IMG/VR virus record: IMGVR_UViG_2703718789_000001
Location: 1 to 8,034 of that record
DNA from: a virus
Lineage: Duplodnaviria; Heunggongvirae; Uroviricota; Caudoviricetes
Reading direction: 5' to 3' (one strand)
DNA length: 8,034 nt
How positions within the stretch are numbered: the stretch's first letter is position 1; each line of letters starts with the position of its first letter. A program made the position numbers. Positions 3,001 to 8,034 of the stretch are shown piece by piece.

Positions 3001-6000
3001 TTGGCAACATCCGTTCCATAAAGATGCGCCAATAGCTCGGTGGTTATGACAGGGATCTGGTTGTGGGTAATCGGGGAAAGAGTTTCAACTGCGATTTTGG
3101 TGGCCATAAGATGATCCTTTTTCTTTGTGAATCATCACCACCTGCGACGCCAATCGCTTGGTGGTGAACTGTGCAGGGTTGGCGTAACCGGGAAAAAGGA
3201 ACCGGCGCGGATTGCTCCGCCCCCACACAGCCCACCATTGAGATGTGACTGTGCAAACGACAATAAAAAAGACGCTGGCGCGTCTGTTGTCGCCTTTTTC
3301 ATCCGGGACGCCAATCCCGACGCCAGATTTTGCTGGCGTGTGAGGAATATAGCCCCGGATAAATCATCGCGTCAATCCCCTTGTATTCCTCGCACGATGT
3401 CTTAGCCACCGGATATCCCACAGGTGAGCCGTGTAGTTGAAGGTTTTTACGTCAGATTATTTTGGGATTGGCTTGCGTTTATTTCTGGAGCGTTTCGTTG
3501 GAAGGTATTTGCAGTTTTCGCAGATGATGTCGGTGATACTTCGTCGCGTCATTCCTCTTGCCTACGTTTCACATCCCGGTACTCACAATCATCTGGAATC
3601 GTCAGCCGCATCCCCTTCCGATGCGCCCACTGGTCAATGTCTGTCAGATATTTATGCATTTCCCCGATATCAAGCTGGCGCGTTGATTTAACGCATCGCG
3701 TAATATTAAAAATCGTCACCTTTTTTACCGGACAAAATATATCTTTTAGCCACTCATGAACCTCTTCAGGCGTGAAGTTTTCAGCAGAAACAGCAGATAA
3801 CTGTGCGGCTATTTCTGTATTCCACATCCACAGAAGACTGTTTTGTGACAATGTACGCTTCTCACGGTACTCAGATATTTTTATGCGCCAGCGTTTTCCG
3901 GTTTTAATTATTTCTTTAAGGATTTCCCAGAATTGTGATTTATTAGTTTCGTGCAGAATAAAATCATTCATCATCAGTCATCAAAATCGAGTTGTTGGAT
4001 AATTCTGTTGCGCTGAAACTCATTGTTGAGTCTGAACAACCGTCGAAGAACACGGTCACGCGGATAGCGCCGTGCGGCAGGTGAATGCTCATACAACTCA
4101 TCAAGCGGCAAACTGGACGATGAACGATACCGATACCAACGCACCAACTCTTCACGAAAATTAGCCCTGACAAGCTCAGCTATCGTACTCATTTCTTAAA
4201 GCCTCCAATCCCTCTCCCCCAAATAAAAAGGCCTGCGATTACCAGCAGGCCTGTTACAAGCTCAGTGATGTAGATGGTCATTGCTTCATCTCCCCTTCCA
4301 TTTCATCAATGTCAACGTCATCAGGAAGATGGGAACAATACGCTGCTATACCATGATGATTTATCTCATACCCTTTGAACGTTACCATCTGGCGCGTAAT
4401 CTCAACTTCGTTCAGGAATCCGCCATCGCATAACTGCCTGGCTATTTTCGATTTGGTCTGGATTATTGGTAGTGCCTGTTCTTTCAAAGCGTATGATATT
4501 TGTGCATCCCATGCCTTTTCGAGAATGGCTAATTGTTTTTTATTCATTTAATACTCCGTCACGTTTTCCTGTCGCCACGCCTCGTCATATTCCGATTTCG
4601 GCATATTGGCGATGTAGCTATATGGCGATCCTGATTCAAGTTGCAGGAACTGGTGCGATTGCTCGTCAAGGAACAACGGGACACCACCTTCCCAACCTTC
4701 GCCGTTACGTTGTTTTTCAAGCATCAAAACAGATGCCGGAGATGCCAGTAGCTGTTCGTCCTTCTCTGACATCTTTTCACCACTCTGAACTCTCTGTAAC
4801 GCTCTCTCGCGAGCCTTGTTACGCCAGATGATGAAAAGGTTGTCTGTCAGGTCTGTTATCGCTCCAGAGCCTTTTACGTCCATTTTCCCGGTTGGTTTTT
4901 CTTCGCTGTCTCCTTTTCGCGAGTGAGTAACGAGAATGACGTGGGAGTTTGTTTTGTTTTTGAAGTCGCAAATCGAGTCAACAAACGCCTTCTGCCCGTT
5001 ATAGTCATCGTCGCCTATGCCACATTTCATCAGGCTGTCGATGATGAATAACTGGATCCCGTATCGGCGGCGAGCGTAGTCGAATATTTCGATCAGCCTG
5101 TCGGCTTTCGCCGTTCCGGTCAGGCCAAACACCCAAAGTCTTTCGTCATAAAATTTAAATGCAGAGTCAATTTCCAGCAATGGAGGCATCTTGCAACACG
5201 TTGCCTGACGGGTAAGGCGCTTAAGGAGAATACCAGGCTTCAGCTCAAGTGACGCGATGCACGTCTTCACACCCTGACGCATTGCCTCAAGTGCCATATG
5301 CCCGACAACCTCGGTGTTATGCGTCGCCACATATCCCCTGGTTACATACAGGTGGCGAGGGTGATCGACCATAATACACAAGCATTCTGCATTGCCGATT
5401 TTTTCAACATTCCTGACGAATACCCCACAGCCCTCGAATCGATGCGCAGTTAATCTGCCATTGAGTCGTGGTGAACGGATGGCCTCCCTGATTTCTCTTG
5501 TCAGTCTGATTCTTGCCTCGTATGAATCCATCCCATGCCGCTTATCGTCCTTGTATGTGTATGTCACGCCAGTTTTAACTCGCGTCCGGCATGACCCGCC
5601 GAGTGAGTTAACCAGTTGAACAACCCCATTGCGCAGTTCTTCACTTGCTGAGGAAAAAACAAGCGTTCCATCCTTCTCGACATACCCATCCGTTTCAAGC
5701 AGACCACACAGCATGCCTATACGCGTTGATTTATTTGCGGAAAAAAACACACGAGGGATGAATTTGTTTTTTGCTGTGCACCCCATTAGTCCATAACCTC
5801 GCAGGGTCTCCATGAGTGGATTTGCCTGACCACGCGCCGTTGATATCAGCCAGTCCTTACCATCTCCAGAGAAGTTGTAATCAGGCAGTTCAGCCTTCAT
5901 ACGCTCGATCATGTATGGCTCGACGTTTGAAAACTTCACGCTCCCATTGCTAAGACTACCATCCCCGAGAAGGGAGCCGATAACCCATGCTAATGGCTCT

Positions 6001-8034
6001 GAGTGGTCGCCAAAGTCACCAGTTATTTCAGGAATCCTAACGCCATTTTTGTGCCTCTTCGTTTCACTCAACCGCTTCAGCTCGAAGGTGTCAATCACGC
6101 GGCGTTTCTCGCCTTTCGTGAATCCACGACTAGTGACCTCCCATAGGTGATCGCCTGCGCAATCAACATAACGACCATCTTCAAATGTGACTCGGTAAAC
6201 ATCTCTAACACCCTGCGGGAATATCCCAGTGACAGTTGACGGATTGCCGTCTACTGACGCCACCTGATCGCCAATTTTTACATCCCCGTGAGTAGTCCAT
6301 GTCCCATCAGCTAAAAGAATAGGCTCATTCAGTGGGCATGCCTTTCCGTGACCGTTCACACCATTGACCAGCGTCAACTCTGCCTCACGGAACTGGAATT
6401 TATCTGCCAGAGATTTCCACGGTGGATTAAACAGATACTGCTGCTTGCCGTAGAAAGCGTTGATAGTGTCCTGGTAAAACTCTCGCGCGCTGTAGAGTTC
6501 TTCGGGGTCGAAGTAGGATGCCGTGCCGATGTACTGCCAGATTTCATCCTCGGTAACACCGTTCATCAGGCATTCGTTGATGTCTTTGTACGGCAGTGTA
6601 ACAAGACGGCAACGATGTTCACCGAGTCGGCTTGCGATTTCCCTTGCGGCTTCACGACCAACATCATCAACGTCCATCGAGATGAATATTTCCTCAAACC
6701 TGTCGAGGTTGTGATACTCAAACTCAATCCACTGTTGCTTAGCACCTTTCCCGCCACCAAACGGCACGGATAACGCCGAGATGCCGTATTGCGCATAGCT
6801 CATACAATCAATTTCGCCTTCGCAAAGTACAACCGCCCTCACGCCAGCGTCCAGAGCCTGCCATCCGAACAGACAAGGTTCGCAATCACCTTCTGCCATA
6901 ATGACTTTCTTCCCGTCCGGGCGCTCAGTGCTGATTCGCTTGACCTGCAACAACTCACCATCGCGTTTGTACGGAATCACCAGAGCATCCAGTTCTCGTT
7001 CTCCATTCCACACCTTGCCGCTGACAACCTCGTAGCGCTTTACGACTTCTGGCGATATGCCACGCGATTGCAGGTACTCAAGATGGGATTCTGTTCTGGT
7101 AACGTAGCGGGCGATTTTCTTGCGATCAGGTCTGGAGAATTTCTTCTCACGTCTGGCATCGAAATGGTGATCGTCATCCTTGATACCGAGAAATGCTTTC
7201 GCTTCCTGCATAGCCTGATGCAGGTTAATTCCACGACATGCCATCCACAAATCAAGCATGTCACCGCCGTCTCCCTCAGCGAAATCAGCCCATTTTTTCT
7301 TGCCGCTAAGGTTGACCTTAAGGCTGTTTCCCTTGTCACCGTTAACGTTACCGGCAACCCACTCATGCCCCTCTTTCTTGCCGTTTGGCAACAGGTGCGG
7401 AGCCACCCTGTCAACCTGCGCCCAAAGCAGGTCGCTAAGTTCACTTGGCGTCATGATTCCCTCAGATTGAGATTTTTAAACCAGAAATCGACAAACGAAA
7501 TACTTAACCAGCCGTGGTTATAACCAGCGACCAGTAGCGATTTGATTTTTGATTTCATGGTTCACCTGTCGAAAAACACGTAGCCAGTTTTCGATACGGT
7601 GATTGCGGATGATGGTCTGGCTTGTGGTTGAATGGTTTCTGGCTTCTCGTCGTTCCAGCGCTGACCGTTCAGGTAGCTCGATGGTAACAACCTGTCGAAT
7701 CCGAACTGCTTACCATTCCTGCATGCGATGTCTTCTGCCAGCATCGTGGCAAACTCGCTTGCCGTACCCCCGGTAGTTTTACGCCATTCCCTGAACTGTG
7801 TTCTGAATGCCGAAGCTGCGTTTTTCTTCCCGGCTTTCCGCATGCCTGCACACCAGAATATTTCCTCGAATGCCTTGTCGGTTTCTTCGTGACGGTCAGA
7901 TGATTTTTCGCACTTCGTTCGGACACGTTCGAACTTAATGTTTTTAGGTTCATTGACTGGTTCAAAAGAGTGATAGGTTCTGGGGTCAGCTCCTGCCCCA
8001 CCCCCTAGGTCAGCTCCTGCCCCACCTAATTCTG

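Follow-up and report, generated by a model that had tools for sequence, protein, structure and literature searches.

In lambda and P22 the replication genes (O/P and gp18/gp12) stand after cII and before the nin genes, with the origin within the initiator gene; the N-terminus of the initiator determines origin specificity, and its C-terminus is matched to the partner on the helicase side. Lambda P loads host DnaB, and P22 gp12, a helicase of the DnaB type, has no primase fused to it. The fused enzyme T7 gp4 has a zinc domain with four ligands that is needed for template recognition in priming, and helicases of the T7 gp4 type need no loader. Animal Twinkle has lost the zinc ligands.

A fused gene of this kind, together with the module around it, is already on record for phages ES18, phi24B and Min27 and for Shiga-toxin phages of the Eru5 type. 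In the ES18 entry gp61 is annotated as 'putative primase/helicase; similar to phage T7 gene 4', and for the phi24B gene a TOPRIM_primase domain, a GP4d_helicase domain and an intein have been listed (Smith et al. 2012, PMC3430580). The Eru5 type of Shiga-toxin phages is defined by an HTH_36 protein and a primase next to cI, with Stx2a_F403 as the reference phage; the authors of that typing scheme note a complete lack of knowledge about Eru phage replication proteins, and they name the Eru5 protein a primase without discussing its helicase half or how that half is loaded (Fagerlund et al. 2022, PMC8951638). In the literature that we searched, the primase-helicase family is covered by annotation-level papers, with no biochemical or genetic experiments.

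Here, we follow up an initial annotation of an 8,034-nucleotide stretch of Caudoviricetes DNA (IMG/VR record IMGVR_UViG_2703718789_000001, positions 1 to 8,034; hereafter the window), which proposed that a fused primase-helicase takes the place of a lambda P-type loader in an otherwise lambda-like nin region. Domain matches and gene position, in a mosaic lambdoid early-right/nin region, support that proposal, and the window probably carries a lambdoid prophage's replication module, with a phage-encoded bifunctional enzyme in place of the lambda P helicase loader. It adds no new kind of system.

Results

The gene is 99.1–99.9% identical to genes of Stx2_16002, phi24B, Min27, Stx2a_F403 and E. 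coli UTAK-1. The copies in phi24B ('P'), Min27 ('P'), Stx2a_F403 and Stx2a_F451 are the same gene with the intein (968 aa; DNA identity to the Stx phages 99.1–99.8%), whereas ES18 gp61, epsilon34 gp52, Sf101_0045 and the mEp043 copy are intein-less at 626 aa, with DNA identity of 87–98% outside the intein. Comparison with other lambdoid replication modules finds the same gene and order in ES18, epsilon34, Sf101 and phi24B. The sequenced-phage relatives share the series initiator, 35-aa ORF, primase-helicase, and differ in their nin-region neighbours, as is usual for mosaic lambdoid genomes; no single phage record matches more than 80% of the window at one locus. Among complete E. coli genomes the gene is present in 296 of 5,426, in 79 of them with the intein. 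The window gene is 99.1% identical to that of the Eru5 phage Stx2a_F403, and the HTH_36 initiator type of close relatives is also that of Eru5, but cI, stx and the initiator N-terminus lie outside the window, so the typing rule is inapplicable.

The initial annotation placed the primase-helicase at 4548–7454, which is exactly one ORF on the minus strand:

4548..7454, minus strand: primase-helicase precursor gene, a single 968-aa ORF with an intein; ATG at 7454..7452, stop codon TAA at 4550..4548
7245..7370, minus strand: N-terminal CHC2-related domain (aa 29–70), without Cys/His metal ligands
6567..6833, minus strand: TOPRIM catalytic core (aa 208–296), with E212 (CEGEID), D261/D263 (MDVDD) and D291 (YKDINE)
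6342..6362, minus strand: N-terminal half of Walker A, GVNGHGK, at the end of the N-extein, placed against the intein-less Sf101 allele (GVNGHGK-T)
5316..6341, minus strand: 342-aa intein (aa 372–713) with a LAGLIDADG homing endonuclease domain and class 3 sequence features
4551..5315, minus strand: C-extein, the remainder of the SF4 helicase domain, from alignment with the T7 gp4 helicase

On the precursor, Pfam reports Toprim_2 (aa 209–296, E 7.7e-12) together with LAGLIDADG_3 and Hint fragments, and detects the ATPase domain weakly because the intein splits it. For the extein searches aa 372–713 were removed in silico to give a 626-aa spliced protein, on which Pfam finds Toprim_2 (E 3.2e-12), AAA_25 (aa 357–507, E 3.7e-6) and DnaB_C (aa 355–594, E 3e-5). 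The PHROG matches of the precursor gene are 'DNA primase' (E 1e-193) and 'DNA primase/helicase' (E 1e-164). Against PDB sequences, phmmer aligns the spliced protein with T7 gp4 (E 3.1e-23, query 192–539 / gp4 138–507) in one stretch spanning TOPRIM, linker and helicase, and Twinkle comes next (E 5e-14); a family profile again ranks T7 gp4 first (E 2.5e-26, query 99–539 / gp4 53–507) and Twinkle second (E 1.8e-21). These scores are far beyond chance. Pfam, PHROG, phmmer and the family profile all agree on TOPRIM and SF4 helicase motifs in one polypeptide, and both assignments of the initial annotation withstand the profile searches. Foldseek with an AlphaFold model of the extein gives the same top matches, T7 gp4 (1q57, 5ikn; E about 2e-21) and then Twinkle (7t8c), followed by Aquifex DnaG; the predicted structure, with moderate confidence in its helicase part (mean pLDDT 71, pTM 0.50), was used solely as confirmation of the sequence-based result.

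Judged from sequence, the gene product is a DnaG-type TOPRIM primase, a linker and an SF4 (RecA-fold, DnaB/gp4-type) helicase in one polypeptide, and the predicted domain architecture is that of T7 gp4 and mitochondrial Twinkle. The likeness to T7 gp4 takes in the DnaG-type RNA polymerase/TOPRIM domain, the linker helix and an SF4 helicase with H1, H1a, H2, H3 and H4. T7 gp4 is the top PDB match by sequence and fold, yet only about 22–27% identical, and the second-best match, Twinkle, has the same domain order.

The module occupies the same genome position as lambda O/P and P22 gp18/gp12. Upstream of the primase-helicase gene, and beyond its far end, the window contains the following:

7562..8032, minus strand: replication initiator, C-terminal 156 codons and stop; the frame is open to the right window edge and the gene continues beyond
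7984..8026, no strand: two 19-bp iterons, GGTCAGCTCCTGCCCCACC, at 24-bp spacing, found by repeat search within the initiator gene and presumably part of the origin
7900..7975, no strand: A+T-rich stretch adjoining the iterons (76 nt, 37% G+C against 48% for the whole window), the presumed unwinding region
7565..7615, minus strand: last 17 initiator codons, PSSAITVSKTGYVFFDR, marking the left edge of the stretch of DNA that accompanies the primase-helicase
7451..7558, minus strand: conserved 35-aa ORF, MKSKIKSLLVAGYNHGWLSISFVDFWFKNLNLRES, the counterpart of ES18 gp60 and epsilon34 gp51; stop codon and primase-helicase start codon overlap as ATGA
4229..4252, minus strand: terminator-like hairpin and T-run from a consensus scan, with an 8-bp stem (6 G-C pairs) followed by TTTTATTT

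The window part of the initiator has PHROG matches (PHROG 270 'replication initiation protein' and PHROG 33384) and no Pfam match, and its identity to the corresponding C-terminal stretch of phi24B 'O' is 93%. The initial description of it as O-like holds for position and layout alone. In close relatives the N-terminus is of the HTH_36 type and similarity to lambda O is not detectable: full-length phi24B 'O', which has the same C-terminal domain as the window initiator, shows none. HTH_36 is the N-terminus of the phi24B initiator, that of the present prophage lies outside the window, and the annotation of the UTAK-1 initiator goes no further than helix-turn-helix protein. ES18-type initiators carry Phage_rep_O (E 1e-35). 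The iteron stretch is 64% G+C, and phi24B has three copies of the equivalent iteron in the same place. By analogy with lambda ori, the A+T-rich stretch is presumed to be the unwinding region; the ES18 and epsilon34 records label the equivalent place 'similar to lambda ori'.

The primase-helicase had been placed immediately downstream of the initiator. It does lie downstream, but the 35-aa ORF, which the first reading had passed over, stands between them. No Pfam family matches this ORF. Of 119 viral contigs, 113 keep the full 35-aa frame, which occurs as two diverged alleles that differ by silent and amino-acid-changing substitutions. The contigs were found through a 54-nt exact DNA match to the initiator tail; their next large ORF is a complete primase-helicase of 626 aa in 77 and of 968 aa in 5, runs off the locus in 21 and is shorter in 10, and none was found in 6, mostly for lack of downstream DNA. 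As the contigs were collected by exact match, the linkage between initiator and helicase in this set partly reflects common descent. At the sequence level, the initiator 3' end, the 35-aa ORF and the primase-helicase gene form a single unit of inheritance. The 89-aa gene that follows the helicase (4278–4547) was considered as a further member and rejected: it has no similarity to ES18 gp62 and is missing from that position in Sf101, which places the end of the module at the helicase stop codon. The terminator-like hairpin stands one small gene downstream of the replication genes, a position that we take to be that of lambda tR2.

The left edge of the block is sharp. The 17-residue tail is identical among initiators that differ in their N-terminal and C-terminal domains, and DNA homology with SI8 and S107 starts abruptly at it; the window and phi24B alleles are identical over 65 nt at the tail, and differ at 8 of 104 nt upstream and 30 of 110 nt downstream. 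ES18 gp59 corresponds to lambda O over its first 155 residues (94% identity to lambda O residues 19–157) and then continues into a C-terminal domain unrelated to that of lambda O; this domain recurs after the unrelated HTH_36 N-terminus in phi24B and is the one present in the window. The C-domain also stands directly upstream of a primase-helicase in phage Fraca (54% / 65% identity) and in Vibrio phages (36–44% / 55–57% identity). It is conceivable, if on balance doubtful, that the tail, possibly with the 35-aa micro-protein, is a portable docking device that recruits a self-loading primase-helicase and gives loader-free origin loading. Such a device would explain an identical tail on two unrelated DNA-binding and two unrelated C-terminal domains, and a mosaic joint exactly 51 nt before the initiator stop codon. 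Alternatively, the perfectly conserved 65-nt island may be a mere recombination joint or a cis-acting DNA or RNA signal. An RNA structure in the island was looked for and not retained (fold z-score −1.73; 12 of 200 shuffles fold equally well, not significant).

A P-like loader was said to be invisible in the window, and none appears: Pfam and PHROG scans give no match to the lambda P, DnaC or IstB families among the main window ORFs, and BLASTP finds no similarity between lambda P and the primase-helicase. Lambda P, the loader of the host enzyme, has no homologue here, where the module supplies helicase and primase itself. Nor does a separate loader lie upstream in close relatives. The closest complete records, E. 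coli UTAK-1 (99.9% identical gene), phi24B, Sf101, ES18 and epsilon34, run cI / cro / cII / initiator / primase-helicase, contain no loader gene upstream and have only the 35-aa ORF between initiator and helicase; ES18, epsilon34 and Sf101 have one extra small unnamed ORF between cII and the initiator.

The 35-aa ORF could nevertheless encode an accessory factor, and 'no loader' would then be too strong. Loading at the origin might need its product, or else host DnaC; the persistence of the ORF across the contigs as two alleles fits this, as does a 35-aa homologue at the same position in Fraca, translationally coupled at both ends (in the window at the 3' end). We consider such a requirement unlikely, because in Vibrio phages that share the C-domain and the primase-helicase the two genes overlap or are separated by about 26 nt, which leaves no space for the ORF, because a 35-aa peptide without a family match is far smaller than known loaders, and because T7 gp4-type helicases load unaided.

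T7 gp4 has a Cys4 zinc site, and the homologous N-terminal domain of the window protein lacks it. The TIGR01391 dnaG model aligns aa 26–143 with its positions 27–155, a profile search aligns Aquifex DnaG (2au3) with aa 51–145 (E 0.003), and the structural model shows a beta-ribbon followed by helices (block pLDDT 71–89 over aa 1–90). A single-sequence PDB search with the N-terminal 204 aa gave no match, so that only profiles and the NCBIfam dnaG model link the domain to primase zinc-binding domains. In an alignment with 65 representative relatives (35–60% identity), no conserved Cys or His occupies the zinc-ligand positions. With all ligands lost, primase activity or specificity may differ from that of T7 gp4.

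This loss throughout the family, and the rank of Twinkle as second-best relative by structure and sequence, would suit an enzyme that is a helicase only, its TOPRIM half serving in structure or recruitment, as it does in animal Twinkle, and its lagging strand primed by host DnaG. Several observations make that reading quite improbable. The TOPRIM acidic residues E212, D261/D263 and D291 align residue by residue with T7 gp4, and E212, D261, D263 and D291 are kept in 63–64 of the 65 relatives, which is not expected of a dead active site; animal Twinkle is without the primase catalytic residues. Strong conservation also extends to the zinc-less domain (G35, G39, G42, S44, W55, D57, F58, G64, D65, L69), suggesting a retained function. 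Finally, Pfam does not detect on the extein the DnaB N-terminal domain PF00772, the docking place of host DnaG on DnaB.

The helicase half of the bifunctional enzyme keeps its motifs in the same alignment. In the spliced protein these read GVNGHGK|T, SLEL, FIIDS, VTHSRK and DVKGSGAITD; in the C-extein, T714 completes Walker A, followed by H1a (SLE737L), Walker B (FIID806), H3 (TH844SRK) and H4 (DVK861GSG). K371, E395, D464 and H502 (extein numbering) are invariant; together with the four TOPRIM residues they are kept in 63–65 of the 65 relatives. At extein position 519, 61 of the 65 have K or R. Lys861 is a candidate finger residue; T7 gp4 has an arginine there, presumably Arg522. This conservation indicates that the catalytic residues of both primase and helicase are under strong purifying selection. 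A gp4-like acidic/aromatic C-terminal residue was dropped as a candidate feature, with only 13 of the 65 relatives ending in F, Y or W.

The intein sits inside Walker A (GVNGHGK|T), and the counterpart P-loop of T7 gp4 has none. Its boundaries follow from its exact absence in the intein-less alleles of Sf101 and related phages (98–99% identical). Class 3 inteins have a non-nucleophilic first residue, a Trp-Cys-Thr triplet in blocks B/F/G and Ser/Thr at +1, and Shigella prophage 'Primase' inteins without an N-terminal nucleophile appear in the main text of the same paper (Tori et al. 2010, PMC2807308). The window intein has Ala1, Trp67 (block B), Cys322 (block F), Thr340 (block G) and Thr at +1, and its closest solved relatives are the class 3 DnaB inteins 6RIX/6RIY and 6BS8, with alignment to 6RIX and 6BS8 across blocks B, F and G; its sequence features are those of class 3. 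Because it splits the Walker A loop, the precursor should be unable to bind ATP normally, and splicing would restore GVNGHGKT. That the copy is instead a decaying, non-functional gene of a prophage no longer able to replicate itself is hardly credible: a minority of prophage copies do carry truncated genes (164–606 aa) and the ATP-binding loop is interrupted, but the 968-codon frame is open throughout, all splicing blocks and both LAGLIDADG motifs are intact, and the same allele, at 99.1% identity, occurs in the inducible, plaque-forming Stx phages phi24B and Min27.

Discussion

We propose that the initiator would bind the iterons and open the A+T-rich DNA, and that its C-terminal part would recruit the primase-helicase directly. 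By analogy with T7 gp4, the enzyme would load itself as a ring without a separate loader, unwind 5'→3' on the lagging strand and make its own primers. Synthesis would fall to host DNA polymerase III, since we know of no lambdoid phage that carries a polymerase. In T7, gp4 is paired with a phage-encoded DNA polymerase and transcription opens the origin, whereas the window module would pair its enzyme with a predicted iteron-binding initiator and, presumably, with host Pol III. With self-loading and its own primers, replication would need neither DnaB nor DnaC from the host, and probably no DnaG. The initial annotation had predicted a lesser dependence on DnaB and DnaG; that replication is independent of both is a reasonable inference, weakened slightly for DnaG by the loss of the zinc ligands in the N-terminal domain.

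The module is common and medically relevant, and the gene also occurs in Stx2a phages of O157:H7. Host DnaB and DnaC, and agents that target them, should make no difference to a phage that encodes both a helicase and a primase; published annotations and the work on Eru typing already imply as much. In Stx prophages, replication after induction affects toxin gene dosage.

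Results

The window is the early-right/nin region of a lambdoid prophage, and in ORF, Pfam and PHROG scans its main genes all lie on the minus strand. The best matches to the whole window are Stx2a-converting phages, none of which covers more than 80% of it, indicating ordinary mosaicism.

Features of the window, from right to left
Right end of the window, minus strand: replication initiator, C-terminal 156 codons, frame open to the window edge
7558..7451, minus strand: 35-aa ORF between initiator and helicase, its stop overlapping the helicase start
7454..4548, minus strand: primase-helicase ORF, 968 aa
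5316-6341, minus strand: intein, 342 aa, with two LAGLIDADG motifs, in the helicase P-loop
4278-4547, minus strand: 89-aa ORF, PHROG 2239
Left of the 89-aa ORF: DUF7301 gene, NinB, Ant antirepressor
Further left: PHROG 1511 protein, NinF, Rha/KilAC antirepressor, NinG

The initial annotation had read 4548-7454 as a fused TOPRIM primase and SF4 helicase, and the profile searches and structure prediction that it proposed as checks bear this out: both parts lie in one ORF, on which Pfam, phmmer, profile and Foldseek results agree. In the precursor, Pfam finds Toprim_2 (E = 7.7e-12) together with LAGLIDADG and Hint fragments, and the ATPase domain is weakly detected. By megablast, sequenced phages carry two allele classes of the gene, one matching over the full length at 99.1-99.8% (Stx2_16002, phi24B, Min27, Stx2a_F403/F451 and phiXuzhou21) and one matching in two pieces over 65% of the query (Sf101, mEp043, epsilon34, ES18, g341c, SEN22 and others). 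In alignment with the Sf101_0045 protein, residues 372-713 are cleanly inserted into the Walker A loop, separating GVNGHGK from T. Removing them in silico leaves a 626-aa protein in which Pfam finds Toprim_2, AAA_25 and DnaB_C, and no DnaB N-terminal domain, the docking place for host DnaG. Against solved structures, phmmer matches T7 gp4 in one alignment running from TOPRIM through the linker to helicase motif H4 (E = 3.1e-23), followed by Twinkle (E = 5e-14). A profile of 20 family members widens the T7 gp4 match to query 99-539 and gp4 53-507 (E = 2.5e-26), and residues 51-145 match Aquifex DnaG. The AlphaFold model of P0001, an intein-less family member (99% identical), has a mean pLDDT of 71, and its top Foldseek matches are T7 gp4, Twinkle and DnaG.

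An exhaustive HMMER search yielded 862 clusters (built at 50% identity) with E <= 1e-30, most of them full-length fusions of about 600 aa. Residue conservation was scored in 65 relatives from these clusters, 35-60% identical to the window protein. The TOPRIM residues E212, D261, D263 and D291 are kept in 63-64 of the 65, there is no variation at the helicase residues K371, E395, D464 and H502, and position 519, the putative finger, is K or R in 61. Such retention across the relatives argues for two working active sites, primase and helicase. The N-terminal domain (window 7245-7370, minus strand; aa 29-70) is by profile a clear homologue of the CHC2 zinc finger of DnaG-type primases and is modeled as a beta-ribbon plus helices. 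Conserved Cys or His at its zinc-ligand positions are found neither in the window protein nor in the 65 diverged relatives, which points to a zinc-less lineage of gp4-like primases; the zinc ligands are the sole defining feature of T7 gp4 that the window protein lacks.

The intein begins with Ala and ends in THN, followed by Thr at +1. Among solved structures it is closest to the DnaB inteins 6RIX/6RIY and 6BS8, all class 3, and in the alignment Trp67, Cys322 and Thr340 take the places of the class 3-defining Trp-Cys-Thr triplet (Tori et al. 2010, PMC2807308). On sequence, it is assigned to class 3, seated in the helicase P-loop. A class-3-like intein occupies this site in a relative with 42% identity, and among 296 complete E. 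coli genomes with the primase-helicase gene, 79 have the intein. Separately, in the family members P0150 and P0178 (both about 40% identical) a further insertion of about 315 aa falls at the position of window aa 214/215, between EGE and xD of the TOPRIM motif. With Cys first and Asn last, then Cys, it resembles a class 1 (Cys1-type) intein, placed elsewhere within proteins of this family; at E <= 0.001, Pfam matches it to no intein model.

No helicase loader is visible either, as had been noted: in Pfam and PHROG scans, no window ORF matches the lambda P, DnaC or IstB families, and lambda P has no similarity to the primase-helicase protein. The discovery of a loader immediately beyond the window's upstream edge had been named beforehand as the observation that would speak against a fused module. 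In E. coli UTAK-1 (whose primase-helicase gene is 99.9% identical to that of the window), phi24B, Sf101, ES18 and epsilon34 the genes are ordered cI / cro / cII / initiator / (35-aa ORF) / primase-helicase, so this check leaves the reading unrefuted.

What the earlier reading missed is a conserved micro-ORF between initiator and helicase. This 35-aa ORF, annotated as ES18 gp60 and epsilon34 gp51, occurs as two diverged alleles and keeps its full 35 aa in 113 of 119 viral contigs. Phage Fraca has a 35-aa homologue at the same position, the Vibrio relatives have none, and the ORF matches no family.

Two 19-bp iterons at window 7984-8026 (three copies at the same place in phi24B) are followed by 76 nt at 37% G+C, against a window average of 48%; the layout is that of lambda ori. 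The description of the initiator as O-like stands for the layout but not for homology: the phi24B initiator carries HTH_36 at its N-terminus and does not resemble lambda O. ES18 gp59 matches lambda O 19-157 at 94% identity over its first 155 residues (Phage_rep_O) and then passes into the C-terminal domain common to phi24B and the window, about 97% identical across all. This switch indicates, from the sequence comparison, that the N-terminal domain is tied to the origin and the C-terminal domain to the partner on the helicase side. Lambda O/P hybrids are known to follow the same rule. At much lower identity, phage Fraca and Vibrio phages also have this C-terminal domain directly upstream of a primase-helicase.

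The earlier reading also did not list the conserved end of the initiator. In the Salmonella phages SI8 and S107 the initiator C-terminal domain differs, yet the last 17 residues are identical (PSSAITVSKTGYVFFDR), and DNA homology sets in sharply 51 nt before the initiator stop. These 17 codons, the stop and the first codons of the 35-aa ORF form a 65-nt island (window 7551-7615, minus strand) with 0 mismatches between the window and phi24B alleles, against 8/104 and 30/110 (8% and 27%) in its flanks. The island is a sharp mosaic joint common to initiators with differing N- and C-terminal domains. Among 105 complete initiators from viral contigs sharing the island DNA, 75 combine a lambda-O N-terminus with C-domain A, 24 HTH_36 with C-domain A and 5 HTH_36 with C-domain B; one is a truncated 124-aa protein with C-domain A only. 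RNA folding of the island region is not significant.

To the left of the helicase, the 89-aa gene directly abuts the helicase stop (TAA, then ATG) and is unrelated to ES18 gp62 at the equivalent position, so this slot is variable. Strong hairpins resembling terminators, with a T-run after each, lie at 4229-4252 and 2395-2416 (both minus strand). The former follows the small gene downstream of the replication genes, a position presumably comparable to lambda tR2, and the latter separates ant from the gene that follows it. Immediately upstream of the Ant antirepressor gene (2433-3107), at 3157-3352 (minus strand), Rfam gives three matches above gathering score, to isrK at 78.6 bits, to C4 antisense RNA at 74.3 bits and to the a1/b1 target of C4 at 50.1 bits; a promoter-like site lies at 3375-3346. 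By sequence this looks like P1/P7 immI-type antisense control of ant in a lambdoid nin region.

Discussion

The fused primase-helicase finding is correct and already known. The ES18 GenBank record gives gp61 the description 'putative primase/helicase; similar to phage T7 gene 4', likens gp59 to lambda gpO and marks an origin 'similar to lambda ori'. The phi24B P protein has been described as combining TOPRIM_primase and GP4d_helicase domains with an intein at residues 372-702 (Smith et al. 2012, PMC3430580). The Eru5 replication type was defined on Stx2a_F403, which carries the same primase-helicase gene as the window, and nothing experimental is known on Eru replication proteins according to the same study (Fagerlund et al. 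2022, PMC8951638). The interpretation of a fused module replacing the lambda O/P-type arrangement is supported with two corrections, the initiator being O-like in layout only and a micro-ORF preceding the helicase.

M. smegmatis DnaBi1 is likewise a class 3 intein in a helicase P-loop; H2O2 drives its block F cysteine into a disulfide, and splicing is paused (PMC6195587). Eight cysteines occur in the window intein, Cys322 (block F) and Cys320 among them, and by analogy redox control of Stx-phage replication via the intein is conceivable. Replication independent of host DnaB, DnaC and DnaG is a sensible prediction. The 65-nt island may be a recombination joint or a cis signal; alternatively, the initiator tail may serve as a docking peptide. 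In that case this invariant tail, by itself or together with the 35-aa protein, may recruit a self-loading helicase to the origin.
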